Part shown: positions 11,362 through 27,549 of the stretch, piece after piece
How positions within the stretch are numbered: the stretch's first letter is position 1
How the letters are laid out: each line of letters begins with the position of its first letter
Assembly: GCA_965228895.1 (NCBI GenBank)
Contig: OZ245842.1
Span: 320,001 to 384,000 of the forward strand
From: Alphaproteobacteria bacterium
GTDB taxonomy: Bacteria; Pseudomonadota; Alphaproteobacteria; SP197
Direction: 5' to 3'
Length of the DNA: 64,000 bases
Made by a program: the position numbers and the translations under genes
The notes under the pieces: model-generated
What the model saw: the letters and a program-made list of their open reading frames with translations, nothing else
Told to the model about the DNA's origin: nothing
The model's database searches: none

Positions 11362-12163
11362 TCAGTTGATCTTTCTTTTCGTATTCTTACTTTTTGTCTC
11401 CGGATAGTGCTTGCTGACGAAGTAAGGATTATCCTGCCCGGAGAACTTCATATCAATGCTGTCGACGCGGTACAGGCCGCAATTGATCAGGTCGGCGGCA
11501 TCGATATCGAAGAGGGCGACGTTATAGCCAACTTCGCCGAAGTTGCTCTTGTAGGCGATGCCGTCATAGCCAGCGTCTTTGAACAACTCGGCAATGGTTT
11601 GTGTTGCTACATAGTCAGCCAAATTGTCGCTCCGCGTCATTGGCTCAGCAAACGCCTTGGCAATTTGCCCCCACACTGACCTTTCGATTTCTTCCGGATC
11701 CGGTTCGTCGAAATAGAAGTGCATTCGATCATAGTCACGCGAGCAGTCGATAACGTCGAGTGTCTGGAGAAGCTTGAATTGACCTACGGAGATTTCTGAT
11801 CCGATCCAGGGCCGGACCTCAGACATGGCCGCTTCTTTCGTGGTTGCAAGGTAGAGGCACGGGATACCTTTCGGATTGGCCCGCCCTTCGGAAGCCCTGT
11901 CGCGCAGCGGTTTCATGCGATCCGGGAGATGCGCACAGGGCACCTCGGATTCATCGTTGCCCTGTTCTTCCGTACGCCAGTTATGGCCGAGCTGTGCGCG
12001 CCAAAAAATCGAACCTTCTTTCAACTGGACCTTACGCGAAGCGGCACCCTTTTTTTACACTATCCAGGAAAGCTTCGGAATCGACTGACCGGACATACCG
12101 GCGGTCGCGCCTAACCGCGCGCTCAAAGTTCCGGTAGCTCTGCCACGATCGAAATCCGCCCAC
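11362..12163 (-). pseudogene. RES-domain (NAD+ phosphorylase-like) gene split by a frameshift in an A7 run
   Basis: GRANPKGIPCLY, SEVRP, GIAYKS RES motifs; N-terminus MGGFRSWQSY... (GTG 12163, GGAGG RBS) joins in frame if one A of the run at 12050-12056 is removed. Confidence 0.75.
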
Positions 12164-12530
12164 GCCTCCAACGCTCCCCGAAAATCCGGCGACCTCACCA
12201 CTAGATCGGAGTTTAGGCTACACATACGTGTATTCAATTACTATACTTTCAACCATAGAAGACGCCGGTCTTCGAATCTGGGTTCTGCGCAGATTGCGCG
12301 AAGAATTTCTTGAAGCGTGCCGTGCTGAATAAAAACCGGCAGCTCAGGTCATCCGCGAGTTCATGTGTGCCTATGTAGACCGCTACAAGCAAGCGGACGC
12401 AAGCAGCTCACGTCGTCGGGACCGACCGGCAGAAAATGAATGAGCAGCGTTCAGAGCGGGAAACAACGCGAGGTGGGAACTGAAGGCTGATAGGGGCAAC
12501 AACTATGCGATAGGCAGTTCCAGGTGAACC

Positions 12531-14360
12531 ATGCATCTACGTCAACTTGACCTCAGAAATTTCCGCTCGTTCTCGAAAGAAAATGTCTCTTTCGAGCGGG
12601 GACTGACGGTTCTTGTCGGCGAAAACAACGGCGGCAAGAGCAACATTATCGATGCGATCCGACTTGTCTCAACGCCACTCGGCGGCCGGCGGGAACTCTA
12701 CTGCGAACAGACCGACATTCGTTTCGGCGCAACGCCGCGCACTTTTGAACTCTGCGCCACATTCGAAGGGCTCTCACCGCCGCAGCAGGGACGGCTGCTT
12801 TCGGCAACCACAAACGACACCTTGCAAGAAGCTTGCTTTGGCCTGACCTACGATGCGACGGGCCGGCAATCGCATGTCCGGCCCACGCTATGGGCAGGCC
12901 GCTTCAAGGCGATGCCCGAGTCCGGCGCCCATGAGATGATCCGGCATGTTTATCTGCCACCGTTGCGCGACGCCAAGCGCGCGCTCGCCTCCGGCAATCC
13001 CACGCGCATCCATGCATTGCTCAATCATTTTCTCGGTGAGCGCGACCCCGAGGACGTTGCGAAGAGTCTTGCTCGCACAAGCGAGCATCCGATTTTGACC
13101 GACGTTGATACTGCCGTTGCGACAGGTCTGGATATATTGACTGCCGGTGTCCGGCGGCAGGGCGCGGCGCTCGGGTTCAGCGCGGATGAAAAGCTTATAG
13201 ACATCGCTCGCGACCTGCGGTTCAAGCTCGCCGATCATGGGATTACCCCGGAAGACCTTCAGTATTCCGGACACGGATTTGCGAACCTCCTGTATATCGC
13301 GACCATCGCCGTCGAGCTTGAAAGAACCGACAACGCCGAACTGACATTGTTCCTCGTTGAAGAACCGGAGGCCCATCTTCATCCCCAGCTTCAGGCCGCC
13401 GTCCTGAACTTCCTGGAAGAGCGGGCGGAACAGTCGCTCATAGCCAAGGCCGACAAAGACGCGCCGGCCGGCCATCTACAGGTAATCGTGGCTACGCATT
13501 CGCCCAATCTGTCGGCATGGGTGCCCAGCAAGAGCCTTGTATTTGTCCGATCCGTCGCGCCAGCGGCAAAGGACGGCGAAGCGGCGAACGAGCCTGAACC
13601 GGGCGAGGCGTTAGAAGCCGCTGATCCGCAAGCGGAAGGGAAGCTACCCCCGCGTCCCGAGTCACGGTGTATTCCTCTTGCTAAACTTGACCTGACCGAC
13701 CCCGACCGCAGAAAGATCGATCGCTATCTCGACGTCACCAAATCAGCCCTGCTGTTTAGCGGCCGGGTGCTGCTGGTCGAGGGCATTGCCGAAGCGCTAT
13801 TGTTGCCGGTCATCGCCAAGCATTATGTCCTCAAGGACCGCCCCGCGGAATTACGCATATTCCGTTCGGCTGTTTTTGTGCCCATCGACGGTGTTGATTT
13901 TGCGCCGTACGCCAAAGCCCTGCTGTCCCCGTTTGACGGTGTGCGGATCGCGGACCGTCTTGTCATCGTCACGGACGGCGACAAACACACCAAAGATGAC
14001 GGAGAAACCGCCACCGGCGACAACCGGAAGACCGATCTTGATGAGCTGGCGGCTGAGAAGGGCGCGGCCGATGTTCTCGACGTATTCGTGAATACCTACT
14101 CGCTGGAAACCGAGCTGGTTGCCGCGGGGAATGCAGCGGATATGAAAGAGGTGTATTTGCACCTACATCCGCGGTCCGGGGCGAAGTGGGACGAGGCTAT
14201 CGCCAAGGAAGGCGATGACCGCGCCAAAGCCATACAAGAGCTTTTCAAGAACACGCCAAAGGGAGACTTTGCACAGCTTCTGGCGGAAAAGGTCGCCGCC
14301 AGCGACTCGTTCAACGTTCCCGTCTACATCCGGGATGCCATCGAAGCGCTGGTCAAATGA
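12531..14360 (+). CDS. OLD-family ATP-dependent endonuclease (ABC ATPase + TOPRIM), GajA-like
   Basis: GENNGGKS, VEEPEAHLHPQ, ATHS, LLVEGIAE and TDGD TOPRIM motifs. Confidence 0.88.
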   Translation: MHLRQLDLRNFRSFSKENVSFERGLTVLVGENNGGKSNIIDAIRLVSTPLGGRRELYCEQTDIRFGATPRTFELCATFEGLSPPQQGRLLSATTNDTLQEACFGLTYDATGRQSHVRPTLWAGRFKAMPESGAHEMIRHVYLPPLRDAKRALASGNPTRIHALLNHFLGERDPEDVAKSLARTSEHPILTDVDTAVATGLDILTAGVRRQGAALGFSADEKLIDIARDLRFKLADHGITPEDLQYSGHGFANLLYIATIAVELERTDNAELTLFLVEEPEAHLHPQLQAAVLNFLEERAEQSLIAKADKDAPAGHLQVIVATHSPNLSAWVPSKSLVFVRSVAPAAKDGEAANEPEPGEALEAADPQAEGKLPPRPESRCIPLAKLDLTDPDRRKIDRYLDVTKSALLFSGRVLLVEGIAEALLLPVIAKHYVLKDRPAELRIFRSAVFVPIDGVDFAPYAKALLSPFDGVRIADRLVIVTDGDKHTKDDGETATGDNRKTDLDELAAEKGAADVLDVFVNTYSLETELVAAGNAADMKEVYLHLHPRSGAKWDEAIAKEGDDRAKAIQELFKNTPKGDFAQLLAEKVAASDSFNVPVYIRDAIEALVK

Positions 14361-16105
14361 CCCAGCAACCCTTCAAGCCCACTGATCAGCAACGCGTGGT
14401 CATAGGTCATGACGGCTCGGCCTTCGTAGCGGCCTGTCCGGGAGCCGGGAAAACACGCGTTATGACCGAACGCGCCCGCCGACTGTTCCAGGGAATACCG
14501 GCGGGACGCGGCGTGGCTTTCCTGTCTTTCACGCAGGCCGCCGTTTTTGAACTCGACACCCGCCTTAGGCAAGAAGGGCTGCTGTCCACGCCGGTCTTTC
14601 CATACTTCATAGGCACCTTTGACAGCTTCGTCTGGCAGTTTCTTATTGCGCCGTTTGGAGTCAAGGATTGCGAGGCGCGCCCCCGCCTGATCGCCGACAC
14701 GGCGCATCTTCTGGTCGAGCCGTTTGATGGCGCTCATGCTTTGCCCCTTTCTTGTTTTTGTCCGCAGACAGGCGCGATTTTCGAGCGCGCAGCCAAGCGC
14801 AAGCGTTTTGACGTATCTCAAAAAACGGAGGCTCAAATTCAGAGATACGTAACCGCTGCCAACCGGCTCCGGGCGGGACTACGACAACGAGGTCATTTGG
14901 GTTTTGACGAAGCGCGCGCGGTTGCGCTCGAACGCCTCAATGACAAGGCGCTTGCTGACCGGATCGTTGCCGCGCTCGCGGGGCGCTTTCGCGAGGTAAT
15001 CGTGGATGAGGCGCAGGACTGTAATCCGGATGATCTGACAATTATTTCGTGGCTGCGCAATTTCGGCCTGCCCGTGAAGGTGGTCTGCGATCCCCATCAA
15101 TCCATCTATGAATTCCGCGGAGGCGTCACCGATCACCTTATTGAGTTTGCGGAAACATTTCCCTCCGACCAGCGTAAGGATTTGACAGGCAATTTCCGGT
15201 CTACACCCAATGTCTGCAAAGCCCTCGCCCAGCTGCGGCCGCCGACTGCTCGCGGCGCCCCTGATGATGCTCTGGGACCGCTAAAAGATGAAACTGCGCC
15301 GGTTCAGATTCTGTCATACGCGGGCAATGGTGTTCCCGCTTCGATCGGCACGACATTTTGCGCCCTGCTGCAGGAGGCGGGTATTGACATTTCATCCGCG
15401 CCCATCGTTGCGGCAACCAAGGCCAGCGGCGCTGTCGCCGCCGGGCAGCCCCGACCGACAGGCGGTAACCACCGGACTATCCGTCTCGCAGAAGCAGTGA
15501 CCGACTTTCATTTCGCCGCCGGCTTCAGCGACATGAAGACGGCCATCGAAAGCGTTCACCGGATTCTCCTGGAATTGGAAGGACGCCTTGGCGACCGTTC
15601 TTACCATCAATATCTCACGGACAATGAAATCGAACTGGCTAGCTGGCGTCCAAAAGTTATCTCCTTTCTCAGAGCTCTTAGGTTTGATGCGGCCAAATAT
15701 ACAGATGCAAGAGCGTGGCATGAGGCCGCCAAGGATTTCTTATCAAGCGAACTAACGATTGAAGACGGTAGGTCTATCTCGCAAAAGCTGACTTGGAATG
15801 CCGGCCTGGACGCGGCGCTTGCAGCTGTACCGGCCAAAACAGCAATGCCCCGGACAATCCATTCGGTTAAGGGCATGGAGTACCCGGCTGTCTGTGTGGT
15901 CACGACAGCATCCACGCTCAAGCGCATTCTGGATTTTTTGGAAACGGGCGAGCCGGTCGACAAAGCCGAGGATGCGCGCAAGCTTTATGTGGCCGCTTCA
16001 AGGGCCGAAAGGCTGCTGGTCATCGCGGCACCCAAGAGCCAGGCCGAACGGCTGAAGGCTCATCTTTCCAGCCAAGGTGCGGCCGTTACGATAAATGAGA
16101 TTTGA
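14357..16105 (+). CDS. UvrD/SF1 helicase, GajB-like (Gabija-type pair)
   Basis: ACPGAGKT, VDEAQD, DPHQSIY, NFRS, TIHSVKG, LYVAASRA; ATGA overlap with the OLD nuclease. Confidence 0.87.
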   Translation: MTQQPFKPTDQQRVVIGHDGSAFVAACPGAGKTRVMTERARRLFQGIPAGRGVAFLSFTQAAVFELDTRLRQEGLLSTPVFPYFIGTFDSFVWQFLIAPFGVKDCEARPRLIADTAHLLVEPFDGAHALPLSCFCPQTGAIFERAAKRKRFDVSQKTEAQIQRYVTAANRLRAGLRQRGHLGFDEARAVALERLNDKALADRIVAALAGRFREVIVDEAQDCNPDDLTIISWLRNFGLPVKVVCDPHQSIYEFRGGVTDHLIEFAETFPSDQRKDLTGNFRSTPNVCKALAQLRPPTARGAPDDALGPLKDETAPVQILSYAGNGVPASIGTTFCALLQEAGIDISSAPIVAATKASGAVAAGQPRPTGGNHRTIRLAEAVTDFHFAAGFSDMKTAIESVHRILLELEGRLGDRSYHQYLTDNEIELASWRPKVISFLRALRFDAAKYTDARAWHEAAKDFLSSELTIEDGRSISQKLTWNAGLDAALAAVPAKTAMPRTIHSVKGMEYPAVCVVTTASTLKRILDFLETGEPVDKAEDARKLYVAASRAERLLVIAAPKSQAERLKAHLSSQGAAVTINEI

Positions 16106-16183
16106 GAGGCCCGCCTTGAAGAGACAGCAAATCAGCGTTCGTTTGCCACGCTTCTTTGAGCGCGTTGTTTCGGATACCGCCAT

Positions 16184-17539
16184 ATGGTTCTGACGATTCA
16201 GCCCATTGGAGAACGCGAATTCGAACTATACGCTCTGTCACTGCCGCAAGGGCCGAATTTTGGGCACCACATGTTTCATTCCGCCTGGAAAACGCCGCAC
16301 AGCGAGGCGGTCGGCGCGGTCCTAATCGATCCCCAACGGCAGACGTTTCGCGCGCTGGTCATGCGGCGCCGTGGGGATCACCGTTTCGCTGTCACCCATC
16401 AGACAGACAGTCCCAGTTCGCCAGAAGCCGCGGCTGCTGTTGTGGCAGAGGCTATGCGGCCGGAAGACCCGCCCGAAGCTCTTCAACCCGGCGAAAAGCG
16501 GAGGCCAAAACTGTTCGCCGCCGGCAAAAAGCGGGTTTCTGAACAGCTCAGGATACTGACCGGCACGGTCTCGCATGTTCCGGCGCTCATGACCATCGGC
16601 GAGGTATACCTGGCCATGCCGCGTCCGGACGATAATTTCGTCCCCGATTTCCAGACGGAGAATTTCGATTCCCGCCTCTGGGAACTTTACCTGCTGGCCT
16701 GCTTCCGTGAACAGGGCGCGATGGTATCGCAGGATTATCCGTCGCCCGATTTTCACATCGAACGAGAGGGGCATTCCTGCTGGATTGAAGCCGTGACTGC
16801 TAATCCGCAGGAGCGGAGCGCACACGACATTGCCGCGCCGGTTCACGCACCCGAGGACCTTGGCGAGCGCTTACTGGGTGCGCCCGCCGCGCGTTTTGCT
16901 AAAACCCTGCGGAGCAAACTTCAGCGGGATTATGAAAAGCAACCCCATGTTCGGGGACAGCCGTTTGCGTTGGCGTTCGCGGATTTTCATGCGCCGAGTT
17001 CAATGGTGTGGAGCCGCGAGGCGCTGCCCTGCTATTTGTATGGCGTGCATCCACGCGTGAACGAGGGCCAGGATGGGCGGTACGCCGCCATGGTGTCCGT
17101 GCAAACGCTTCGAGGGAAACAGCAAATTCCCGCCGGTTTGTTTCGCGATCCGGTAATGGCGCACGTGTCTGCCGTCATCTTCAGCAACGCGGGGACGTTC
17201 TCCAAGTTCAACCGCATGGGCTTCCTGGCAGGATGGCGGCCCCAGGGACTGACGATGGTGCGCGACGGAATCCTGTTCGACCGCGATCCCGGTGCTTTGG
17301 AGCCGAAGCCCTTCAGGTTCGATGTTCTCAGCGATGAATATGCATCACTATGGCCCGGCGGCGAAGCGTGGTGCCAGGAGCTTGATGTGTTTCACAATCC
17401 ACTGGCGACGTATCCCATGAACTTCGATCTTCTGCCCGGCGCGACGCACTGGTTCGAGCAAGACGGCGACATTGAATGTTCGACGATCTGGGAATGGTCG
17501 GTGCTTTCGTCGGTGACTCATTTGAAAGTTGAGAAATAG
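16184..17539 (+). CDS. Hypothetical protein with a restriction-endonuclease-like core
   Basis: Long ORF; FDSRLWELY...SPDF...WIEAVT resembles a variant PD-(D/E)XK arrangement. Confidence 0.6.
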   Translation: MVLTIQPIGEREFELYALSLPQGPNFGHHMFHSAWKTPHSEAVGAVLIDPQRQTFRALVMRRRGDHRFAVTHQTDSPSSPEAAAAVVAEAMRPEDPPEALQPGEKRRPKLFAAGKKRVSEQLRILTGTVSHVPALMTIGEVYLAMPRPDDNFVPDFQTENFDSRLWELYLLACFREQGAMVSQDYPSPDFHIEREGHSCWIEAVTANPQERSAHDIAAPVHAPEDLGERLLGAPAARFAKTLRSKLQRDYEKQPHVRGQPFALAFADFHAPSSMVWSREALPCYLYGVHPRVNEGQDGRYAAMVSVQTLRGKQQIPAGLFRDPVMAHVSAVIFSNAGTFSKFNRMGFLAGWRPQGLTMVRDGILFDRDPGALEPKPFRFDVLSDEYASLWPGGEAWCQELDVFHNPLATYPMNFDLLPGATHWFEQDGDIECSTIWEWSVLSSVTHLKVEK

Positions 17540-17692
17540 GCGATGACCCGTGGACTATCAGTACCAGAAACAGATCAAAATAGAGATGTCTGATTTTATT
17601 GCGTAATATTGAGTAATATTTCTAATTTGTTGATAGACCTGATAGAGAAATTCGAAATATTTGAATGTTAAATAATATTTAGAGACAAGAAA

Positions 17693-18034
17693 ATGGCTTC
17701 TGGTGGAGACTTGACGTATTGGGCCAATCTTGCGGCGATAGCCGGTTTTATCGTGACGTTTGTTGGCGCCTGTGTCGGAATTTTTGGGTACTGCAGCTAC
17801 CGGCGAAGCTGGAAAAAGAAGACGGACGCCCTTGTTGGGTACTTAAAGACAAAGAAAGCGCAGGCTGGTCCCGGCAAGAAAGGGCAGCAGACCACTACGC
17901 ATCTGATCCGCTATGTCGGCCTTACCGAGGACGAGATTCTTAAGATCAGTTTTGAGAACAAGCACGTCGAGCGGACGGTCGGCAAGGATGAAGAGGGAAA
18001 GGCGGATACCCTCTTTTTCGAATACAAAGAATAG
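17693..18034 (+). CDS. Small membrane-anchored hypothetical protein
   Basis: N-terminal hydrophobic helix followed by a basic segment; AT-rich upstream region. Confidence 0.6.
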   Translation: MASGGDLTYWANLAAIAGFIVTFVGACVGIFGYCSYRRSWKKKTDALVGYLKTKKAQAGPGKKGQQTTTHLIRYVGLTEDEILKISFENKHVERTVGKDEEGKADTLFFEYKE

Positions 18035-18068
18035 GAAACAAGATGCCCAGCTGAAATCCGAGGATGCG

Positions 18069-19103
18069 ATGGTATTAAGAATAATAGTCGATACGTGCGT
18101 CTGGCTCGACCTGGCCAAAGACTATCGGCAGCAACCGGTCATCGGCGTTCTTGAAGATCTGGTCAAAGCGCGAGAGATCGAATTGCTTGTGCCTGAAACT
18201 GTTCTCGATGAATTCGGGCGTAACAAGGCCCGCGTGATCGAAGAAACGCGCCGCAGTCTTCAATCTCATTTCCGACTGGTACGCGAGGCCGTAAACAGAT
18301 TTGGCGACAATGCTTCCAGGATGGATACGCTCAACGGCCTGAACGAAGTCGATCACAAAATTGCAACCAAGGCGGAAGCGGTCAACGACTCGGTCGACCG
18401 GATTGAAGCACTCCTGAAATCAGTGCCGGCACTGCCGACGAGCGATACTGTCAAACAGCGCGTAACCGAACGGGCTATCGCAAAAAGAGCCCCATATCAT
18501 CGCGACCGCAACAGCGTTGGCGATGCCATCCTCGTTGAAATCTATGCCGAGCAGATATCAGCCGCTTCCGGCGCGCACGCAGAGTTCGCATTTGTGACGC
18601 ACAACACAAAAGACTTCAGTACGGTGAACGGTGATCGACGCAGGCCTCATGACGATCTGGAAAGCCTCTTCGATGCACCCGGATCGACCTATTGGGTTTC
18701 GATCGTTGACCTTATCAAGGCGCGTGATCCTGACCTACTGGCGGATCACGACTCCGAGTTCAACTTCTCTCAACAGTCCCGCACACTCTCCGAAATTCTG
18801 GAGGCGGAGCACCTTCTATTCCGGCAGGTCTGGTACAACCGCCACTGGAATCTTCGGGCCAAGATCGAGGACGGCAAGCACCATGTCGTTCCAGAGAAGG
18901 ATTATTCCCGCAATCCCTACCGTCGGGACCAGACCCTGGACAGCGTATGGGAGCAAGCTCTTGCAGCAGCTAAACGCACCGAAGAAGAGGTCGGCCTTGA
19001 GAATCTCGGGCCATGGGATGAATTCGAGTGGGGAATGATTAACGGCAAGCTGTCCGCTCTGCGCTGGGTACTGGGGGACGATTGGGACATGCTGGATACG
19101 TAA
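18069..19103 (+). CDS. PIN-domain protein with an extra C-terminal domain
   Basis: IIVDTCVWLD, VLDEF, GDAIL, VTHNTKDF PIN acidic motifs; GAGG RBS before ATG 18069. Confidence 0.8.
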   Translation: MVLRIIVDTCVWLDLAKDYRQQPVIGVLEDLVKAREIELLVPETVLDEFGRNKARVIEETRRSLQSHFRLVREAVNRFGDNASRMDTLNGLNEVDHKIATKAEAVNDSVDRIEALLKSVPALPTSDTVKQRVTERAIAKRAPYHRDRNSVGDAILVEIYAEQISAASGAHAEFAFVTHNTKDFSTVNGDRRRPHDDLESLFDAPGSTYWVSIVDLIKARDPDLLADHDSEFNFSQQSRTLSEILEAEHLLFRQVWYNRHWNLRAKIEDGKHHVVPEKDYSRNPYRRDQTLDSVWEQALAAAKRTEEEVGLENLGPWDEFEWGMINGKLSALRWVLGDDWDMLDT

Positions 19104-19168
19104 CCCATGGCTTCGGGGAATTTCCTTCGCGACGAGGAGGGCAGGAAGGTGCACGATAGCAAAGAGAT

Positions 19169-22100
19169 ATGATGCGCACTGAGGACGAACCCGAACACAG
19201 TACGATTAGAGCCTGGAAGTCTTCACGATCCGGGGCTTGGGCCGGGCGCGGATTTCATTACCAGCACCTGATTTCAACTTTGATTCTATCACGACAGTGG
19301 GCCGGCCTTGCGCCATCCGGTTTTCTCGTGCCCGAGGGACTAGACGACTGCGTTGTCGAGCTTGCAGACCGTGATATCTGGCTTCAGATCAAATCGCGAA
19401 AGGACAGTGCATTCAACAACAGCGAAGTGCAGGCGTTCCTGACCGCTACCCGTGCCAAGGCCGCAGCGGTTGAAGGCGCGAAGGAGAACCATGCTACCGT
19501 TGTTCTTGAGCATCCGCGGACCGGCCGCACTGAGGCGGGCATCGACCAGATGTTCGCGGATGAGAACCTATCGGTATTTGCATGTACGGAGCCGGGAGAG
19601 GAAGCTGTCAAACTGCTTTTGGGGCAGCTCGACATAGCGGAAGTCATCGCTGAAGGTATTGTCAGCGATCTGTACAGACTGGTTGCCGATGCGTCGCAGG
19701 CGAACGCATCTTTACCCTTCGAACAAAGACAGCGGATTTCCACAACAGAGGTAGAACGACGTATCCTTGAACGTTTGGAGGCCGAAGACCCTTCCGCAAT
19801 AGACCGCGCCATGGCGTCCGGCGCTCTGGAACCCGTCGATTTCAAGAGCTCTATCAGCGAGCCAGCCTTCTACCAAGGTGTAAAGGTCAGGCCAGGCCAC
19901 GTCGCTGCCGGGCTTGTGCTGGACCGCCCGGACGATACGGATACGGTTGTCCGTACACTCAGACGGCTACGGCATGTGCTCATATCGGGTCCGTCGGGCG
20001 CCGGAAAATCCGCGCTCATGTGGCTGTGCGCCCGTCTGTTGGCTGGTGAGATCAGGTGGTACCAGATCACCGCACGGGCTGTTCCTGCGGATGCCGATGC
20101 CGTCATTCGCTTTGTACGCGCCCGCCGTCCCACCGAAGATTCCCCGATCGGTTTGGCGTTCGATGATGTTGGTTCTACAAACAGCGACCTTTGGGACGTG
20201 CTCGTCCGTGAACTGAGAGGGATGCCGTCCGTCTATTTTCTTGGCTCGGTGCGCCAGGAAGATGTCACTCTCATCGCCAACCAGTCAGATACCGAGTTCA
20301 TAGCCGTCAGCCTTGATGAAGAGCTGGCCGAAACTGTCTGGCAGAATCTCCACGCCGAGAATCAGACAAACTGGGAACACTGGCGCGAACCCTTCGAGCA
20401 GTCCGAAGGTCTCATGCTCGAATATGTACACCTGCTGAACAAGGGACGACGGCTTGCAGCCGTTATTGACGAACAGGTTCGGCAGCGGCGACAGGAGGAG
20501 CGGCTCGACGAACTTGCGATCATAAGAAGCACCGCCGTGCTATGCGCCCGTGGTGCAGAAGTTCATGCGGGCAAGCTGTTCAAACTACTCAACATTAACC
20601 CCGAGGACGCCAGCCGTGCAATGTCCCGTCTCCTTGACGAGCATCTGGTGAGAGAAAGCCGACCCGGTGTACTGGGCGGCCTGCACATGTTGCGCTCGCA
20701 GGCACTCAGCGAGGCATCACACGATGAGGTTGCCCTCTTAAGTGCGGACTCCCTCTGGCAGGGCCTGCCTGCGACGACAAACGAAACCCTGCCAAGGACA
20801 GTTCAATCGATCCTCGCAGACGCGCGGGACGAAGGCGAGGCAACAGCCTTAGGCAAATTCGCGGAAATGCTTGGAGCCAGCGCCGATGTTGATACATGGG
20901 TGGCCCTCCTGACTGGACTTGGGCTCGCAACCCTGGAACGCCGGGTTGCCTCGTTTATGGAAGTGCTTGAACAGCACGGGGTGCAGCGCGCCCAATGGTC
21001 GCTTGCATCCATGTTCAGCGATCCGGGCATCGACATTCCTGAGCTGTCAGAGTTTGAACAATGGCAAGACCTTCGAGACGCTGTGCTCGCTTTCCGTGCT
21101 TTACCGAAAGACGACCTTCGGCCCGCCTGCCTGGAGCACCTTCCCAAGGAAAGTACCGCCCCGTCCTGCCAGAATTTGCAGCAGGCCAACAAGTTTCTCT
21201 CATGCCTCGCACCGATCGGCGGGGGTGAGCCCGTGCCGCTTACAATCGCGCCAGATTTCGTTGGCGATGCACAGCAGGATATACGGCAAGTCGCAGCCTT
21301 GCTTTCCACGGCTTACCTAATCGGACCGGACCTGGCCCGAGATCTCGTGCAGGCGTTCGGCGGCGAACAGGTCCTGTTTGAGTTGTTCCGGTCTCAAACG
21401 CCGTGGGTATCCACCCCCGTTATTGACCCCAACGGGGCGCATGGACGTACTGTCCGTTCCGACTGGTACTACGTGGCTGAACAGGAACAGTCCGATCCCC
21501 ATGAGTCGGTTTGCAGCATTGGCGAGACCTTGATCGCAATATCACCGGACTCGGATGCTGCGGCATCGGATGCGGTGAATCCGCAGGGCGAGCCTATTAC
21601 AATCGGGGACCTCACGCCCTGGTCCAAGAATATGCCGAGGAAAAACATTCCCAGCAAAACCCGCGTTGCGTGGAACGTGGCCTTCCGGCAAGTCATGCTT
21701 GCCCGATCAGCTTCCGACAGTCTCACCGACTATACCCGGCAAATGGCTGAACTGCTAAGGCGCACCGAAAAGGTCTTTCGGTCGTTCACCGAGAAATGGA
21801 TCAAGGGCAAAAGCATCGGGAATGCCGACGCGCTGGCCGAGGAAGTCAATGAGATTATTCAGGCCGTCAATGCACTCGCCTACGCCACGCCCGAAGAACC
21901 AACATCTGAAATGACAGCGCCTGCGGCTGGTGCAGGGGAGGACGATACACTCGGCGCGCTGCTTACGGGCATACTCGGCAATCTCATGAGAAGAATGAGC
22001 AAGCTTCCCGGAGAAGGAGCCAAGGGCACAGCCACCTTTGCGGGGAGCCTGGCAGCACAGGCGTGCGAACATGAGAAATCGGCCATATGGCGGACAAGTT

Positions 22101-23059
22101 CAGAACCGCCCCTTCGTGAACTCGGCGCTTTGAGAGAACGTCTCGGCGATGTCGCCTGCATATTGCACGAAATGGCGCATGACGATGGGACATCGTCAAT
22201 TCAGGGAATCGTCAAGGCCGCGCGAAAAGGCCACTTAGGTAAGGCAGTCCGTGCGGCTGCTCGGCGTTGCGGTTCGTTGGCCGATCAGCGGTTCGGCCAA
22301 CGGCTGAAGGCTATGGAAACAGCGCTTAGGGATAACGGCTGGAATGCCCGGTGCTGGTCCCGGCCGATTGACGAGGCCGACAGCGTGTACTGGCCCGCGC
22401 GGGAGGTCGCGGTTCTTGTTGAAATCACGGATTTTGAGACGGACGCGGGATACATCGAAGATTCTCTTATGATGGGGCAGGACTATCTTGGAACCGACTG
22501 GCGCTTCAGAGTTTTGCCGGTCCTCAATGGCTATGTTGTGCCGGCTTTGGCCTTGCTTCCTTCATCACATGTACCGTTGCCTGATCAGGACTTCGCGAAG
22601 GACTGGCGGGACCATATTGACCGTCCGTTCTTGTCCCCGGAAATCGTAGACAGATTTGATGAAGCGTTAGCCGCCTGCAACCAGCTATCAGGAATCCTGG
22701 CTTGCCGCAATCCGGACAATCTTCATCCGGATGAAAATGAGGTACTTTCGAAGTCCGCTGAGTCCTTCGAGCGCAATCATGACTTGGTTGCTGAAGCGGC
22801 TGAACGGACCGGATCCGAGTACCTGGCATGGGCATACAACTATCTGAGCGAAACCTGGGATCAGGTTGTTCGTGAGTTTGAGTCTGTAAAAGCCGGCCAT
22901 AACGTTGCCCAGCCGCTTTGTATGAATGCCCATTTGGCACTTGCAGGCGAGACGAACGACCAGCTAGCGGATCTTGCCGCCGCGCGCATCCTTTTGCTGC
23001 AGGCTGAGTGCATGAGCACAGTCGAACACACTGACACTCTGCCGTCAGGAGCATCGTGA
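19169..23059 (+). CDS. Large nuclease-NTPase protein (Cap4/DUF4297-like N-terminal nuclease + P-loop NTPase + long C-terminus), Avs/STAND-like
   Basis: AGRGFHYQ...EGLDD...LQIKS; GPSGAGKS Walker A; LAFDD Walker B. Confidence 0.7.
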   Translation: MMRTEDEPEHSTIRAWKSSRSGAWAGRGFHYQHLISTLILSRQWAGLAPSGFLVPEGLDDCVVELADRDIWLQIKSRKDSAFNNSEVQAFLTATRAKAAAVEGAKENHATVVLEHPRTGRTEAGIDQMFADENLSVFACTEPGEEAVKLLLGQLDIAEVIAEGIVSDLYRLVADASQANASLPFEQRQRISTTEVERRILERLEAEDPSAIDRAMASGALEPVDFKSSISEPAFYQGVKVRPGHVAAGLVLDRPDDTDTVVRTLRRLRHVLISGPSGAGKSALMWLCARLLAGEIRWYQITARAVPADADAVIRFVRARRPTEDSPIGLAFDDVGSTNSDLWDVLVRELRGMPSVYFLGSVRQEDVTLIANQSDTEFIAVSLDEELAETVWQNLHAENQTNWEHWREPFEQSEGLMLEYVHLLNKGRRLAAVIDEQVRQRRQEERLDELAIIRSTAVLCARGAEVHAGKLFKLLNINPEDASRAMSRLLDEHLVRESRPGVLGGLHMLRSQALSEASHDEVALLSADSLWQGLPATTNETLPRTVQSILADARDEGEATALGKFAEMLGASADVDTWVALLTGLGLATLERRVASFMEVLEQHGVQRAQWSLASMFSDPGIDIPELSEFEQWQDLRDAVLAFRALPKDDLRPACLEHLPKESTAPSCQNLQQANKFLSCLAPIGGGEPVPLTIAPDFVGDAQQDIRQVAALLSTAYLIGPDLARDLVQAFGGEQVLFELFRSQTPWVSTPVIDPNGAHGRTVRSDWYYVAEQEQSDPHESVCSIGETLIAISPDSDAAASDAVNPQGEPITIGDLTPWSKNMPRKNIPSKTRVAWNVAFRQVMLARSASDSLTDYTRQMAELLRRTEKVFRSFTEKWIKGKSIGNADALAEEVNEIIQAVNALAYATPEEPTSEMTAPAAGAGEDDTLGALLTGILGNLMRRMSKLPGEGAKGTATFAGSLAAQACEHEKSAIWRTSSEPPLRELGALRERLGDVACILHEMAHDDGTSSIQGIVKAARKGHLGKAVRAAARRCGSLADQRFGQRLKAMETALRDNGWNARCWSRPIDEADSVYWPAREVAVLVEITDFETDAGYIEDSLMMGQDYLGTDWRFRVLPVLNGYVVPALALLPSSHVPLPDQDFAKDWRDHIDRPFLSPEIVDRFDEALAACNQLSGILACRNPDNLHPDENEVLSKSAESFERNHDLVAEAAERTGSEYLAWAYNYLSETWDQVVREFESVKAGHNVAQPLCMNAHLALAGETNDQLADLAAARILLLQAECMSTVEHTDTLPSGAS

Positions 23060-23062
23060 CCA

Positions 23063-23326
23063 ATGACGTGTTCACCGTCTCCAGAAGAAACTGTTGTCGC
23101 CCATATGACGGGTCCTGTACCGGAACGCCGTGACGACATGCGGGCTTTATGGGAATGGTATGACCTGGAAGTGATCGTCGTTCAGGATGCGAAACACATC
23201 ACGTGGAATGCAACCAAAGGGGACACCAATCACGGCGCAGCCTATGCACGCCCGTCCACTCAGGAAGTATCCGGTGGCCGAACTCTGGTACACTCTCTTG
23301 GCGGCCTTAGGTCGGACTTCCTGTGA
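23063..23326 (+). pseudogene. Probable truncated gene (N-terminus reminiscent of Lit/peptidase U49-like proteins)
   Basis: ATG 3 nt after the upstream stop; protein-like for about 50 codons, then overlaps a convergent gene. Confidence 0.3.
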
Positions 23327-24131
23327 TCATATCTGAGGCCGGTATGCGCAGCGACCAATCGTGCCTGCGCTCTGCACGAAAGCGGCGCCTTTTGGCACAT
23401 GCGCCATCGGGCCGGATTTCACAGTCCAGATCGTCTAGGGATGGCTTGGACATGTTGAAATTTACATTGAGCGAGTCGTAACCCAGATCATCTATGTAAG
23501 TCTTGTATCTAAAGCCGGCATAGACAGCGGCGGCGATCAACGCGCCGTTGGATACATAGCGTGGGCCCAGCCTGCCGCCCTCCGGGTAGTTGCAGCTGTA
23601 GTTTTCCGCGATATGCTTTAGCCGGTCGCTGCCGGTGCCAGGTCTTATTGTCTTCGTCGGCTCAACGCGCCCGACAAAAGCGAGTGAGAGCAGGAACTGC
23701 TCAATTCCGTCATTGCCGAGAAATTCCTTGCGGCTTTGAAGCACGCGGCCATAGTGCTCCTGTGCGGTCTCCCAGTTGCCGTCATCTTTGCGTTTGCGCC
23801 GGCCGACACCGATACCGTGTAGGGTCAACCTCCTATCAGTAGCAAGTAGGGCTCGTACTAGAAATCGGGCGACCGCCAGATAGAAGGGCTTCGGTTCGAC
23901 CTGAAAATCGTGTGCCGCGAGATATGCGCCGAAAGCAGCACCGTCTGCCGTCGCCATAACGGGCGAGGGCGCGCGGGCGGCTGCTAGGAGTGAGGCGTAA
24001 GTCTGAAAACCGAGGCCGCGGCCAAGGGCTTCACAGCGATGCGAAGACTTCACGCCGCACAGTGCTTTGCCCAGATCGGTCTTGAGTTCAGCAATGTTCG
24101 ATGACGTTACAGGAAATGTAAGAGTAAACAC
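23307..24131 (-). CDS. Hypothetical protein with an N-terminal Glyoxalase_8-like helical domain
   Basis: GGAGG RBS + GTG 24131; LK..L....SSHRCEALGRGLGFQTYASL pattern. Confidence 0.65.
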   Translation of the reverse strand: MFTLTFPVTSSNIAELKTDLGKALCGVKSSHRCEALGRGLGFQTYASLLAAARAPSPVMATADGAAFGAYLAAHDFQVEPKPFYLAVARFLVRALLATDRRLTLHGIGVGRRKRKDDGNWETAQEHYGRVLQSRKEFLGNDGIEQFLLSLAFVGRVEPTKTIRPGTGSDRLKHIAENYSCNYPEGGRLGPRYVSNGALIAAAVYAGFRYKTYIDDLGYDSLNVNFNMSKPSLDDLDCEIRPDGACAKRRRFRAERRHDWSLRIPASDMITGSPT

Positions 24132-24255
24132 AGATGCATCCTCCAGTCTTGGGGGCAGTGCCGTTCGCCGATTACGCAGCAGCCCGCTGGTGTGATGCGG
24201 TCTGTTACACGAGATACAATTTGACTGCAGGACGTTTGACTCGGCGACAAGTCGA
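24130..24255 (-). promoter_or_regulatory. Structured 5' leader sequestering the RBS and start codon, with a 7-nt loop-pairing element
   Basis: 24130-24146 pairs with 24187-24205; 7-mer at 24165-24171 is complementary to 24241-24247. Confidence 0.55.
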
Positions 24256-24508
24256 TGGTGTCCAAACCGAGCCCAAAAATAGTCGCCACAGCCTTTTTGG
24301 TCAAGGTCGAACGTTCTAAGCATTTGACCACAATCCGTTTTTGACCTTTCTGCTGAGTGCGTCCGCCCGCCTGCGCTTCGGGCTCCGGCGAGACGAACCG
24401 GGCTCTCGTGAACCGAGCCCGCAAGGTGCGGTCTCGGCCATGCCATCGCTCAAAGTGACGCGACAGGCCAGAGCGGCGCTAAGCCTGTCGCGCCTGCGAG
24501 CTACGATG

Positions 24509-25204
24509 TTAGGCAGCTTTCCAGAACGGCTCAGCGAAAATGTCGATCGGCGTCGCGCTGCATTTTGGGCAGTGCCACATGTTCGTGGCCATCTGCGCAC
24601 CTGTGGAGACAGCATCACAGTGTAAACAGTGCCACTCACTCGACAGCCCTCGCTCACCAAATAGCGGATGAAGTGTCCGCCCTTTTCCATCTGGTTTTGT
24701 CGAGCGCCGCGGCCAGTCAGTCGCGATGCGGGCCCGCAGTTCTTCTGCGCCGATGTTTGCGATCGTCAGAGCTTTCGATACGAACGCCGGGTCCAGGATA
24801 GGGTTGTCCATGGAATCGTCGTACATCTCGATCACCGGCTCTTCGGACGGTGCCTGTTCCACGCAAATGGCCCATCCTTGCCCGTACATAAGCACCTCGA
24901 AATCGATCTCTATTGTGTAATCGTGAGCATCGATACTGCCGTGTTCCTTGGTCGTGAAGCCCAGTCCAATAGGGGGGCGAGAGTGCGTGTCGACATTCCC
25001 TGCATTTGAGGCATTAGCGAGAGCATCCACCTTCGCAGGGTCAGGCCGCCAGCCGGTTTCCCATGCGATGGTCAATGCCTTCCAATGCTGAAATTCGAAG
25101 GCGTTCGCAACCGCATCAAGAGCCTTGTGGTGGGCAATGCGTTGCCGGCGTGCGAGCCGCTTGGCGATGATCTTTAGAGAGTTCAGGTTGTTGTAGTTGG
25201 TCAT
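24509..25204 (-). CDS. Hypothetical protein with an N-terminal Glyoxalase_8-like helical domain and a C-terminal Zn ribbon
   Basis: LKIIAKRLAR...HHKALDAVANAFEFQHWKAL; CLHC...CPKC. Confidence 0.75.
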   Translation of the reverse strand: MTNYNNLNSLKIIAKRLARRQRIAHHKALDAVANAFEFQHWKALTIAWETGWRPDPAKVDALANASNAGNVDTHSRPPIGLGFTTKEHGSIDAHDYTIEIDFEVLMYGQGWAICVEQAPSEEPVIEMYDDSMDNPILDPAFVSKALTIANIGAEELRARIATDWPRRSTKPDGKGRTLHPLFGERGLSSEWHCLHCDAVSTGAQMATNMWHCPKCSATPIDIFAEPFWKAA

Positions 25205-25335
25205 GGTCCATTCCTACGATCTCGGACCTGACTAGGTGCCCACTGCCAATCAAGTCCGCCCAAAGGGAACGGTCATGAAAGAGCTTTAGAGAAAGCACTG
25301 CATAGCTTCGCGCAGGTGGGCAAACCGGCCTGTGC
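25201..25335 (-). promoter_or_regulatory. Structured 5' leader sequestering the RBS and ATG, with a 7-nt loop-loop element
   Basis: Outer stem 25201-25214/25266-25278; 13-bp inner stem 25223-25258; loop 7-mer 25237-25243 complementary to 25316-25322. Confidence 0.6.
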
Positions 25336-25424
25336 TTAAGGCCATGGAAAAAATAGGAAAGATCCGTCGCTTAGTCAAGATACGGGACATTAGCCAACCG
25401 TGTTTACGCACTCAAATGGGCCGC

Positions 25425-25452
25425 ATTTTCCATAATGCAGATTATGGCGCTC
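25425..25452 (+). repeat. dif-like (XerCD-type) site 1
   Basis: ATTTTCCATAA-TGCAGA-TTATGGCGCTC, 11-6-11 layout with CATAA/TTATG inner arms. Confidence 0.65.
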
Positions 25453-25579
25453 GAGAATGTAGGTGCAGAGTTAACAGGTCAGTCCCGAGTAAAATACAGA
25501 TGTCAGTTTTCAACCCTTTTGATGGGGTCTCAGGGATGATGCTAGCGACGGAATTGATGCTGATGAGTGGACGAGAAAT

Positions 25580-26410
25580 AGGCCTTCATCGCAAGGCTGT
25601 CGTTCGATGGCGCTGGAAGGTTTCAGTCCCTACTGATGTTGGAGGTTTCGTCGGCGCGGTGCGCTGCCAAGACATCTGGTGAGATTGGATCTCTCATTCG
25701 ATGGATGAGAGAGCGGGGTCGCCTGTGGGATATGTCGCGTATTCACGGAGAGAAGCCGAGGCTCGCTTTTGGCGTCAGCCAAGCAATAGTCTTGTGCAAC
25801 GTGCAGAAGCGACCCTCCGATACCGATCAGATGTCGAGGACTCTCTACCGAATCTAGACGGTTTGGACGATCGCCATCGACTTGCCGGTCATGCTGGCGT
25901 CGACGTTTCGCATTGTCAGAGTCCGCCGACCCTGTGTTTCGAACAGCAAAATCTGGTGCACCTTGACGTGACAGCCAACCCAATGGCCGAGTGGGCGGTA
26001 CATCAAGTGACCAAAGTGTCTCCATGCGATGCTGTACCCGGTCTCCTCGTCTGTGACCGAGATCAGAAATCCAACGGCATCCAGATTGTGCCGATAGAAT
26101 CTCAATCACCGTGAAAAACGAGACCGTGGAACGCGTGATGGTTTCGCTCCGTCAAGAGCGTCTGGTTCACGTCACGTCATCGTCTAAAATGAACCGCACC
26201 TACAGCACGTTTTCAAGGTCACCCCAACCCACCTCTACAGGTCCCGACCACTTCTGTCGCTGTACAGAAACTCTCCAGCCTCCTTAGGGACGTCGACGAG
26301 CTCGCAGGGCTGCATCGCTGCCCTTCCTGGTGTTGGGGCACAGCATCATCAATAAAAGAGGATGGCGGCGTGGTAGTCAGCACCTTCCGAGGGAATTGGC
26401 GTGTTGGAAA
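25580..26410 (+). pseudogene. Degenerate integrase-core (rve) transposase remnant
   Basis: Fragments HRKAVVRWRWK, SRIHGE, VTANPMAEW, DRD across frames, with stops and frameshifts. Confidence 0.6.
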
Positions 26411-26421
26411 GAGGCTATGGT

Positions 26422-27549
26422 CTAGCATTTAGAGGGCTGCTCAGAATCCTCCAAAAAGTCGAGCGCGAGGCATGACTCGGCGCTCCAGCCAACGGAACAT
26501 GTCATGCCTGGATTAAGCGTCAGGCCGCTTGTCGCAGGCACCATGGTCACGAAGTCATCCCTGCCGCAGAGTGACAATACAACGCGAGTGTGCAGGCCAA
26601 CATAGACCAGCTCCAGAACACGCGCGTGGAACACATTTGCCAAGGAATCTGCGGCGGGATTCCACACAACTTGCTCAGGTCGAACCGATAGCGTAGTCCG
26701 GTCTCCTACTGCATCAACCGCCACCGGCGTGGCTCGAATAATGGAGCCGTCGCTTACTTCGACGCCGCAAACACCTCCACCCATGGAGGCCACGTGGCCA
26801 TCAATGGAGTTGTTGTCACCCACAAATCGAGCGACGAACGTGGTGTCCGGTCGATCATAAATGGTCTTGGGCGCGGCAACTTGCTGCACAGCTCCTCCAT
26901 TGAACACGGCGATCCGGTCGGACATGGTCAGTGCTTCGGCCTGATCGTGGGTTACGTAGACCAAGGTTAGGTTGAGGTCATGATGCAGTTGGCGAATTTC
27001 CAACTGCATCTGTTCACGCAACTGCTTGTCGAGTGCGCCGAGCGGTTCGTCCATTAACACCAAGTCCGGTTCAAACACCAAAGCCCGCGCCAGCGCAACC
27101 CGTTGCTGCTGGCCACCTGACAGGGCACTAGGCTTTCGATGTTCATACCCGCTCAATCTAACCATAGCGGTCGCTCGGGCGACCCTGTCGTCGATCTCGG
27201 CTCGCCCCACGCCACGCACGCGCAACGGGAATCCAACATTACCAGCGACTGTCATGTTCGGAAACAACGCGTAGTTCTGGAACACTACACCAATGTTTCG
27301 GTCCTGCGGCAGTAGATGTGTAATAGGCCGTCCGCGCAACAGGATCTCGCCGACGGTCGGTTCCTCAAATCCGGCAAGCATCATCAGCGTTGTCGTTTTC
27401 CCTGAACCGGATGGGCCCAACAACGTCAGGAACTCCCCTTTCCGGACCTCAAGATCGAGGTCCCGAACGGCCATGACTCCACCTCCATAACTTTTGGAGA
27501 TGTTGCGATAACAGACCAGGTTTTCTGATGCGTTTGCCTCAGCGAACAT
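26422..27549 (-). CDS. Polyamine/amine ABC transporter ATP-binding protein (PotA-like)
   Basis: GPSGSGKT, LSGGQQQR, LMDEP, VTHDQ, TOBE-like C-terminus. Confidence 0.92.
   Translation of the reverse strand: MFAEANASENLVCYRNISKSYGGGVMAVRDLDLEVRKGEFLTLLGPSGSGKTTTLMMLAGFEEPTVGEILLRGRPITHLLPQDRNIGVVFQNYALFPNMTVAGNVGFPLRVRGVGRAEIDDRVARATAMVRLSGYEHRKPSALSGGQQQRVALARALVFEPDLVLMDEPLGALDKQLREQMQLEIRQLHHDLNLTLVYVTHDQAEALTMSDRIAVFNGGAVQQVAAPKTIYDRPDTTFVARFVGDNNSIDGHVASMGGGVCGVEVSDGSIIRATPVAVDAVGDRTTLSVRPEQVVWNPAADSLANVFHARVLELVYVGLHTRVVLSLCGRDDFVTMVPATSGLTLNPGMTCSVGWSAESCLALDFLEDSEQPSKC

Follow-up and report, generated by a model that had tools for sequence, protein, structure and literature searches.

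How are two neighbouring genes expressed when each is preceded by about 140 nucleotides (nt) of RNA that appears able to fold? The question is raised by a 64,000-nt stretch of contig OZ245842.1 (GCA_965228895.1), called the window here, in which genes A and B and their leaders all lie on the minus strand. An earlier note on this DNA had described, in front of each gene, a stem locking the ribosome-binding site and a seven-base "key" that pairs over a distance with an upstream hairpin, and had read the two genes as one modular system. Judged by covariation among relatives, leaders A and B are real, conserved and strand-specific RNA structures. Together with a third leader, found upstream of genes of the PF20066 (Glyoxalase_8) type, they are conserved RNA families absent from Rfam 15. 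The alignments suggest that these leaders are most likely cis-acting elements of translational control. A fuller account is that structured messenger RNA (mRNA) leaders of ~140 nt would stand behind their own promoters and set translation initiation, perhaps being read by the N-terminal module (N-module) of the protein they precede. We regard this fuller account as evenly poised between right and wrong.

A simple consensus scan of the minus strand between 23000 and 25700 found exactly two sigma70-like sites, each directly upstream of one leader. TTGAC is kept at the corresponding position in 75 of the 77 upstream regions from relatives of gene A, and a loose -35/-10 pattern is found in 45 of 58 upstream regions for gene B. 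The start codons adopted here are those used by relatives in alignments of 31 A relatives and 29 B relatives. As each promoter lies ~145 nt before its start codon, genes A and B form separate units, each with a leader of ~140 nt. They are most likely two independent single-gene transcription units, with 5' ends inferred from the promoters. In all three leader types the first hairpin, P1, begins within a few bases of the inferred transcript start.

The stems and seven-base stretches of the earlier note were found where it had placed them, with UGCCCAC at 25316-25322 in leader A, and UCGCCGA (24241-24247) and UCGGCGA (24165-24171) in leader B. In the window sequence alone, these folds do not go beyond chance when set against dinucleotide shuffles (z -1.40 / -0.86 over 151 nt and -1.77 / -1.62 over 91 nt). 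It is the comparison with relatives, using slid partners and shuffles, that lifts leaders A and B above chance.

For gene A, a scan of one genome per species gave 80 related loci, 77 of them with enough upstream DNA. Across these 77, the bases before the start codon are strikingly similar even where the proteins share only 37-45% identity. Alignment A3 consists of the window and 75 loci (76 distinct rows, 171 columns). Left out were L016, L038 and L049, which have too little upstream DNA, L074, an N-terminally truncated match without a leader, and L072, in which the 5' half of the leader has been replaced. The structure of five helices (Table 1) is 90.4% paired in A3, compared with 30-42% when the partners are slid by 1-3 columns. 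Its covariation score is 0.311 against 0.058-0.083 for the slid versions, and none of 500 shuffles scored as high. Columns 62-100, which form a variable linker, are poorly aligned, so that helices there are under-counted.

Several helices of leader A contribute to this signal. In the four core pairs of PK1 (A3 columns 16-19 with 56-59) between 14 and 25 sequences per pair are changed on both sides and 0-2 are unpaired. P4, which contains many G-U pairs, is 93.8% paired and has five pairs in which both bases change. It corresponds to the inner stem of the earlier note, which was recovered as described, with 11-13 bp at 25224-25257, three G-U pairs and a loop presenting GUGGGCA. The key pairing between this loop and the UGCCCAC strand was returned by RNAalifold, unprompted, as the top consensus helix on A3. 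All eight of its pairs are formed in 74 of 76 sequences; pair 34-116 occurs as GC in 58 and AU in 16, and pair 31-119 as CG in 64, UG in 9 and UA in 3. P1 crosses PK1 and the key pairing crosses P4, all with covariation support, which makes leader A a pseudoknotted RNA. Conserved unpaired bases (GCNAAGC) lie beside these helices. A further small hairpin, ACGC/GCGU, was rejected as it breaks in the GUGC/GCAC clade in which PK1 holds. As a possible leader peptide, a 19-codon open reading frame (ORF) was noticed by eye in the window, starting where leader A is inferred to begin, but the aligned relatives do not share it. Before the variable U-rich linker lies a weak terminator-like match (25298-25315, minus strand) with a 5-bp stem and a U-rich run, the stem of which is not conserved.

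Leader A also contains an alternative helix over the start codon, formed by the 3' arm of P4. Its pairs likewise vary in a compensatory manner, with 126-164 occurring as GC in 53 sequences and UA in 15, and 131-157 as AU in 50 and GC in 6. Column 131 covaries with both of its possible partners, column 104 in P4 (UA 54, CG 7) and column 157 in the start-codon helix. As P4 and the start-codon helix are mutually exclusive, two states are suggested for leader A.

Relatives of gene B were collected by a metagenome scan, which gave 80 loci, 57 with a full N-terminal match and enough upstream DNA. After removal of six duplicates and L138, the upstream region of which does not align, the window and 50 loci formed alignment A4 (51 rows, 173 columns). 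The structure is 90.1% paired in A4 against 27-43% when slid, with a score of 0.260 against 0.061-0.091, and again 0 of 500 shuffles reached this value. The 5' two-tier hairpin is almost invariably formed, with Hb (A4 columns 14-17 with 45-48) 96.6% paired and changed on both sides in three pairs, and Ha (24-27 with 37-40) 99.0% paired. The inner stem is 85.4% paired, and in five of its pairs both bases change. Pairing between the two loops (30-36 with 121-126) reaches 100%, its six pairs being present in 51/51 sequences and compensatory at 31-125 (CG 48, UA 3) and 34-123 (CG 50, UA 1). Since both pairing strands lie in loops of supported hairpins, leader B forms a true intramolecular kissing contact. 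The long-range pairings of the seven-base stretches are thus kept by compensatory change in both leaders, in 74/76 sequences for A and 51/51 for B.

The P4 loop of leader A and the Ha loop of leader B share a geometry of two unpaired bases before the paired stretch and none after it. Reasoning from the alignments, such a geometry fits a loop contact better than it fits a classical H-type pseudoknot. Leaders A and B have unlike sequences and a common layout, as had been claimed. In leader B the outer stem over GGAGG and GUG also bore out the earlier description: it folds, and the part covering GGAUGC of the Shine-Dalgarno region is 74.3% paired in A4, with covariation in the form of four pairs that have both bases changed. 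In 42 of 51 sequences, the start region is more open once the upstream sequence is shuffled. No mutually exclusive pair of helices like P4 and the start-codon helix of leader A was found in leader B. The conserved unpaired bases beside its covarying helices are CACC...AAAC and GUAAU.

Table 1. Genes, promoters, leader elements and adjoining defence genes, with positions in the window.
Feature	Position	Strand	Description
Gene A	24509..25204	minus	231 amino acids (aa), ATG start at 25204
Promoter of gene A	25350..25378	minus	TTGACT, 17-nt spacer, TATTTT; from promoter scan
Leader A, ~140 nt	25205..25344	minus	Inferred transcript start to base before ATG; kept in window and 75 loci
Leader A P1, 5'-terminal hairpin	25326..25344	minus	GGCCU...AGGCC; A3 columns 7-12 with 20-25, 87.7% paired; 3/6 pairs changed on both sides
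Leader A PK1	25332-25337 with 25293-25298	minus	P1 loop with downstream strand; A3 columns 14-19 with 56-61
Leader A key, 5' strand	25316..25323	minus	UGCCCAC and one further base; A3 columns 28-35 with 115-122, 99.7% paired
Leader A P4 hairpin	25246-25256 / 25225-25235	minus	10-nt loop with key 3' strand 25236-25243; A3 columns 102-112 with 123-133
Leader A small hairpin		minus	A3 columns 89-91 with 96-98; one of the five counted helices
Leader A alternative helix over start codon	25224-25232 with 25200-25209	minus	P4 3' arm with GGACC-AUGAC; A3 columns 126-134 with 154-164, 89.2% paired
Gene B	23307..24131	minus	274 aa, GTG start at 24131
Promoter of gene B	24276..24304	minus	TTGACC, 17-nt spacer, TATTTT; from promoter scan
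Leader B, ~140 nt	24132..24272	minus	Kept in window and 50 loci; 5' end inferred
Leader B 5' two-tier hairpin	Hb 24260-24263 / 24230-24233; Ha 24250-24253 / 24238-24241	minus	Ha loop with key 5' strand 24242-24247
Leader B inner hairpin	24177-24185 / 24153-24163	minus	13-nt loop with key 3' strand 24165-24170; A4 columns 106-114 with 128-138
Leader B outer stem	24193-24198 with 24136-24141	minus	GCAUC with GAUGC (Shine-Dalgarno region); A4 columns 85-90 with 151-156
RES-domain gene	11362-12024		Defence island member
Gabija GajA and GajB	12531-16105		PADLOC E 5e-294 and 1e-249
PD-T7-1	16184-17539		PADLOC E 1e-95
PIN_12 protein	17913-19103		Defence island member
STAND NTPase	19169-23059		1296 aa; weak nSTAND and LmuA-like N-terminal matches

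The check proposed in the earlier note, a search of the upstream regions of PF20066 genes, led to a third covarying leader of the same layout. PF20066 genes were fetched from 301 genomes of the class, 25 of which gave a match. A promoter-like TTGACA box and a conserved leader precede 16 of 18 full-length genes, and the same leader precedes all six genes in which only the N-module matched. By Pfam, two of these six are fused to Glyoxalase_7, one to LON_substr_bdg and two to zf-C4_ClpX, and one is a short ORF. The third leader thus goes with the N-module across different C-terminal domains, in agreement with the modular picture put forward earlier. Alignment A6 of this leader has 22 rows, in which the 3' arm of a long hairpin is poorly aligned and its helices under-counted. 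The layout is that of leader A, with a 5' hairpin whose loop pairs downstream and a key strand two bases after the hairpin. The loop-downstream pairing (A6 columns 22-27 with 66-71) is 91.7% paired and all six pairs are changed on both sides. The key (35-40) is 100% paired with a far-downstream loop (153-158), being complete in 22/22 sequences with four compensatory pairs. Overall, the A6 structure is 81.8% paired against 30-43% when slid and scores 0.503 against 0.088-0.193, with 0/500 shuffles as high. A stem covers the Shine-Dalgarno region, and in 17 of 22 sequences shuffling of the upstream sequence leaves the start region more open. The conserved unpaired bases of this leader are GGUGAA.

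Glyoxalase_7 genes allow the leader to be followed with and without the module. Among 19 such loci, two have the module, both already in A6, and both have the leader. Of the 17 lacking the module, 16 have no match at E 0.01 or better to R3, the covariance model of the third leader. The Glyoxalase_7 gene of locus L202 (1370-1554) carries a third-type leader (23.3 bits, E 4e-4; key and PK1 identified by eye) and has no detectable N-module. This gene has no obvious ATG and may be a deletion derivative. The genome from which the window is taken has a Glyoxalase_7 gene of its own (L204, G000:C1:5318506-5318853), which has neither the N-module nor a leader match.

Conservation of this kind could in principle have no RNA function at all and reflect DNA-level signals such as operators or recombination sites, or the recent spread of a mobile cassette. 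The elements are indeed patchy: R1, the covariance model of leader A, gave one weak match (E 9.7e-4) and no new gene contexts in 150 other genomes of the class. Their contexts are also mobile, with A relatives on 40 plasmid records, 25 of them typed conjugative, and B relatives on 7, and the single-sequence folds are unremarkable, as noted above. Compensatory changes, on the other hand, preserve pairing in several helices. The cells of paired columns hold more G-U than A-C combinations in A3 (10.9 vs 2.2%), A4 (8.2 vs 2.7%) and A6 (7.8 vs 4.0%), and this excess in all three alignments places the structure on the sense strand, that is, in the mRNA. The proteins have moreover diverged to ~40% identity while the leader is still alignable, which argues against recent spread. 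An explanation without RNA function is barely credible.

The keys were compared between families, as the earlier note had proposed them to be orthogonal. There are 10 key types in A, 5 in B and 7 in the third family. Cognate duplexes have energies of -16.0 (A), -9.3 (B) and -9.6 (third) kcal/mol and cross-family duplexes -3.7 to -5.7 kcal/mol, with one exception, the third-family 5' key with the A 3' key at -10.4 kcal/mol. One third-family variant (GCCCGC/GCGGGC) is identical to the core of the key of A. The energies and the shared variant indicate that keys differ between families, yet have not been freely diversified. The proposal therefore stood as regards differences between families; it did not stand within them, where keys are mostly conserved, nor for A and PF20066-type keys, which can cross-pair.

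A trans-acting or antisense RNA might instead target the loops, as happens in plasmid copy control, with the internal pairing being one competing contact. The GC-rich loops (UCGGCG in B) and their geometry appear to resemble the kissing loops of antisense systems, and gene A is frequently found on plasmids. If an external target were all that mattered, the internal partners would have no need to covary with each other, as they do, and a simple consensus scan of the opposite strand of the window between 23000 and 25700 found no promoter-like site. Leader A with gene A and leader B with gene B are each present in a single copy, and no second complementary locus was found in the genome, making an antisense target highly improbable. 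Degenerate DNA patterns searched against the same genome gave only chance matches or the locus itself and were discarded.

The earlier note could not assign the leaders to a named motif, and this was upheld. A scan of window positions 22500-26500 against Rfam 15 at E up to 10 identified no family. Its three matches had 15.5-21.8 bits against cut-offs of 50-100, and one of them, to sR40 (16 bits), overlaps the 5' end of leader A. In 16 PF20066 loci, Rfam gave only a tRNA and one weak small RNA (sRNA) match elsewhere. Nor do the three leaders recognise each other: R1 on the 80 B loci and R2, the model of leader B, on the 80 A loci gave 0 matches, R1 had no match below E 1 on 24 PF20066 loci even when run with filters off, and R3 gave nothing on the window.

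These searches bear on whether the leaders are riboswitches, in which the pseudoknotted 5' domain and loop contact would form a pocket for a small molecule or ion and the ligand would select an open or hidden start. Highly conserved unpaired bases adjoin covarying helices in all three leaders, a variable linker separates two sub-domains, and leader A has two exclusive helices, all of which would suit such a switch. Against this, the three types share no conserved core bases and no cross-matches, and none matches Rfam. The downstream genes are diverse and not metabolic or transport genes (unknown proteins, VOC-fold, Lon-N and ClpX zinc-finger proteins) and do not point to any ligand; what the leaders are linked with is a protein domain and not a pathway. 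A riboswitch is thus distinctly unlikely.

The protein domain concerned forms the start of the gene A product. This protein begins with a three-helix module, continues with a beta domain in the middle and ends in a CxxC...CxxC zinc ribbon (AlphaFold predicted local distance difference test, pLDDT, 78.6). Searches found 158 relatives for A and 255 for B. Residues 5-48 of A resemble the start of PF20066, and 27 of 31 A relatives match its N-terminal part (positions ~6-58, best E 9.2e-6). The window protein alone gives E 0.041 and 14.4 bits against a cut-off of 23.7, and aligns with the module in A7, a module profile of 37 rows. The gene B protein (pLDDT 93.1) belongs to no Pfam, NCBIfam or PADLOC family. 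Comparison of the profiles of A and B relatives (A1 vs A2) by hhalign gave E 0.41, and that of the A7 profile with B gave E 0.0054 at a probability of 6.7%, collinear over 45 N-terminal columns. AlphaFold models of A and B both open with three helices of like length.

The module is widespread. At E 0.001 or better the A7 profile matched 3534 protein clusters, of which 909 reach 1e-10 or better, and in nearly all of the best 150 of the 3534 clusters the module lies at residues 1-60, in proteins of 59-462 aa. Some fusions join it to substrate-recognition domains of AAA+ proteases without the ATPase parts (P0241, P0242, P0244, P0291, P0368, P0390; L192, L195, L196). The Lon N-domain and ClpX zinc finger were identified by Pfam and ClpA-type N-domains by eye. 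These fusions give hints of possible adaptor or decoy roles in proteolysis. One listed protein appears by eye to have four copies of the module and two zinc fingers. Family A itself occurs in two forms, a short one of ~225-247 aa, as in the window, and a long one of 382-386 aa (loci L017-L081, e.g. L042:3983-5131) with an additional ~150 aa at the C-terminus that have no Pfam match. Both forms have leader A.

None of the searches run gave a function for the N-module. Foldseek found no match in the PDB at E 0.001 or better for the model of A or B. VIA-align gave a best Z of 5.7 for B, to the small helical bundles NAB2-N and PWI, which is below the noise level for helical folds. Only unnamed clusters were found in the ESM Atlas and only weak matches in PHROGs and NCBIfam. 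A sequence profile search of the PDB with the module returned only a Myb repeat (E 0.81).

How such leaders would act can be outlined from their alignments. In leader B and the third family, the stem over the Shine-Dalgarno region would limit initiation. In leader A, the 3' arm of P4 could instead pair with GGAYC-AUGAC over the start codon, leaving the start either free or covered. Through the long-range pairing, the 3' hairpin is held by its loop to the 5' domain, and one state would thereby be stabilised. A trans factor reading the fold might be the N-module of the encoded protein, which would amount to autogenous control. The module is favoured as the reader because it is the module, and not the effector domain, that the leader type follows. 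Nonetheless, the encoded N-module is no better than a tentative candidate for this role, held at well below even confidence. A broader proposal, which we consider doubtful, is that the leader RNA and three-helix module form a matched RNA-protein pair. Promoter, pseudoknotted leader and RNA-reading domain would then make up a portable "head" cassette joined to many effectors, including the substrate-recognition domains of Lon, ClpX and ClpA. If true, expression of each fusion would be self-limiting or RNA-gated, and the module would represent a new widespread RNA-binding domain (3534 protein clusters) with a new class of autoregulatory leaders.

A number of observations weigh against control of initiation by a leader that its own product reads. 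Linkage of leader and module is expected for adjacent DNA anyway and does not amount to binding. The leader without a module at L202 speaks against the module being needed. The Glyoxalase_8-like motif that the earlier note saw at both N-termini was retained for A and reduced to a hint for B. As 0 of 29 B relatives match PF20066 and the profile comparison is no more than suggestive, the N-terminus of B is no demonstrable member of the module. The absence of cross-matches between the leader models means that common descent of the three types is not supported. The stem said to lock the ribosome-binding site of leader A (25201-25214 / 25266-25278) folds in the window but is only 49% and 60% paired across 76 sequences, and by this comparison it is a feature of the window's clade and not of the family. 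In a nested-fold accessibility model, which ignores pseudoknots, the start region of leader A shows no extra hiding, at 0.43 against 0.42 with shuffled upstream sequence and lower in 40 of 76 sequences. The start-codon helix spans coding bases, so part of its conservation may stem from the protein. Lastly, the sequences share descent, so that the shuffle controls overstate significance and slid-partner controls and distinct pair types weigh more, and several compensatory changes may each have arisen once and been inherited throughout a clade.

Some of the same evidence would fit a constitutive structural element without a sensor, which protects the mRNA from decay or fixes a low or set translation rate for genes on mobile DNA. 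P1 lies near the inferred transcript start in all three types, the promoters are near consensus, and insulation would help in variable, plasmid and island contexts; L202 also retains its leader without the module. For stability, however, a 5' hairpin alone would do, and two long-range pairings formed at 99.7-100%, together with the exclusive helices of leader A, exceed that role. A purely constitutive element is accordingly unlikely, and regulated initiation is kept as the preferred reading.

The surroundings of the two genes were examined in the same sets of loci. No B relative lies within 4 kb in any of 80 A loci and no A relative in any of 80 B loci, so that A and B, contrary to the earlier note, are not parts of one system. 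Neither has a conserved partner gene, as judged from neighbour clusters and from Pfam matches of 130 flanking ORFs for A, and from 90 flanking ORFs for B. The 130 ORFs flanking A include AbiEii (6), DUF736 (4), Eco57I-type methylases (3) and reverse transcriptases (RVT_1, 3), and also HEPN, GmrSD and HipA. On two plasmids gene A lies between AbiE, RES-Xre and restriction modules, near ParB, DUF736 or RepC, with RES-Xre adjoining it on a Phaeobacter plasmid.

Such company raises the prospect that the leader RNA is itself the partner of the protein, as an antitoxin-like inhibitor, cofactor or component of an RNA-protein particle comparable to type III toxin-antitoxin systems. A strong promoter and a folded, pseudoknotted RNA stand directly upstream of the gene, each RNA type accompanies its own protein type, and gene A is found among the toxin-antitoxin and defence genes just listed. 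Tandem Repeats Finder, however, found 0 tandem repeat arrays in 23000-25700 at a minimum score of 30, and there is no terminator-like site between leader and gene save the one weak match within leader A. There is no sign of toxicity, and none of the fused domains (VOC fold, Lon-N, ClpX zinc finger) resembles a toxin. An RNA-protein particle consequently has only a slim chance.

In the window, profile scans including PADLOC identified a defence island beside genes A and B at 11362-23059 (Table 1). Proteins A and B themselves match no PADLOC family at E 0.01, although their neighbours GajA, GajB and PD-T7-1 matched strongly. The only tRNA gene of the window, tRNA-Met at 1892-1968, lies ~9 kb upstream of the first defence gene and could mark a boundary of the island. 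On the other side, ~1 kb upstream of promoter A (25380-26420) contains only short overlapping ORFs. This DNA separates the island from an ABC-transporter/TetR block and could be a degenerate remnant or the edge of the island. The two ORFs scanned there, 25332-25682 and 25630-26109, had no Pfam match. Between genes A and B, the region 24422-24548 (minus strand) matches ar7, an alphaproteobacterial sRNA in Rfam, below threshold (E 0.25; 21.8 bits, cut-off 60), and GC-rich inverted repeats were noticed by eye downstream of the gene A stop codon.

As a type of control element, structured 5' leaders are already known; the present ones comprise three covariation-supported families, each with a long-range loop pairing that is unusual. 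One promiscuous N-terminal module, found in ~3500 protein clusters, is linked to two of these families. If the module reads its own leader, a function would be gained for many "glyoxalase superfamily" and hypothetical proteins, along with small, mutually non-interfering RNA-protein control parts. On the plainest reading, the three covariance models can be used for annotating alphaproteobacterial plasmids and genomic islands. The analysis also corrects the starts of the genes and establishes that A and B are independent.

A literature search found no paper describing leaders A, B or the third, and none on Glyoxalase_8 / PF20066, although supplements, which lie outside such a search, might list motifs of this kind. 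In the portions of PMC11109978 and PMC8632094 covered by a term search, glyoxalase and alphaproteobacterial motifs are not mentioned. The available part of 10.64898/2026.10.21.760802 reports a covarying motif, cluster 630,527, immediately upstream of glyoxalase, flavin monooxygenase and NmrA-like genes, read there as a common 5' leader, and another covarying motif upstream of DUF736 genes. Going by the description of cluster 630,527 given in that part, it may overlap with the third leader.

None of the known systems considered fits the leaders as a family, but each shares some features with them. ToxI of type III toxin-antitoxin systems is likewise a pseudoknotted RNA directly upstream of a protein gene, with a strong promoter and a home on plasmids and in defence islands. 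The present leaders differ in having no tandem repeats and in forming one continuous RNA with the mRNA, and nothing about them points to an endoribonuclease or to toxicity. The ZTP/pfl, SAM-II and preQ1-II/III riboswitches resemble the leaders in their covarying helices, long-range pseudoknot, variable linker and conserved junction bases 5' of a gene. The leaders, unlike them, have no Rfam match, no core common to the three types and no metabolic theme among their genes.

Two further systems involve control of translation by a pseudoknot. In IncI-alpha and IncB plasmids, repZ and repA are under pseudoknot-dependent translational control. Like these, the leaders have a GC-rich hairpin loop that pairs with a distant strand and a stem that occludes the ribosome-binding region, and their genes are plasmid-borne. 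They differ from them in that no opposite-strand promoter and no conserved leader peptide were found, the genes are not replication genes, and the 3' partner is part of a hairpin loop that precedes the start by ~33 nt and does not adjoin the ribosome-binding site. Gene 32 of phage T4 is under autogenous control through a 5' pseudoknot, and ribosomal-protein leaders are comparable. The leaders described here differ from gene 32 in their two long-range pairings and in their three-helix module, for which RNA binding is only proposed. They share with gene 32 and the ribosomal-protein leaders a folded 5' element and a variable, often U-rich linker to the start, and here too the gene's own product is the proposed reader.

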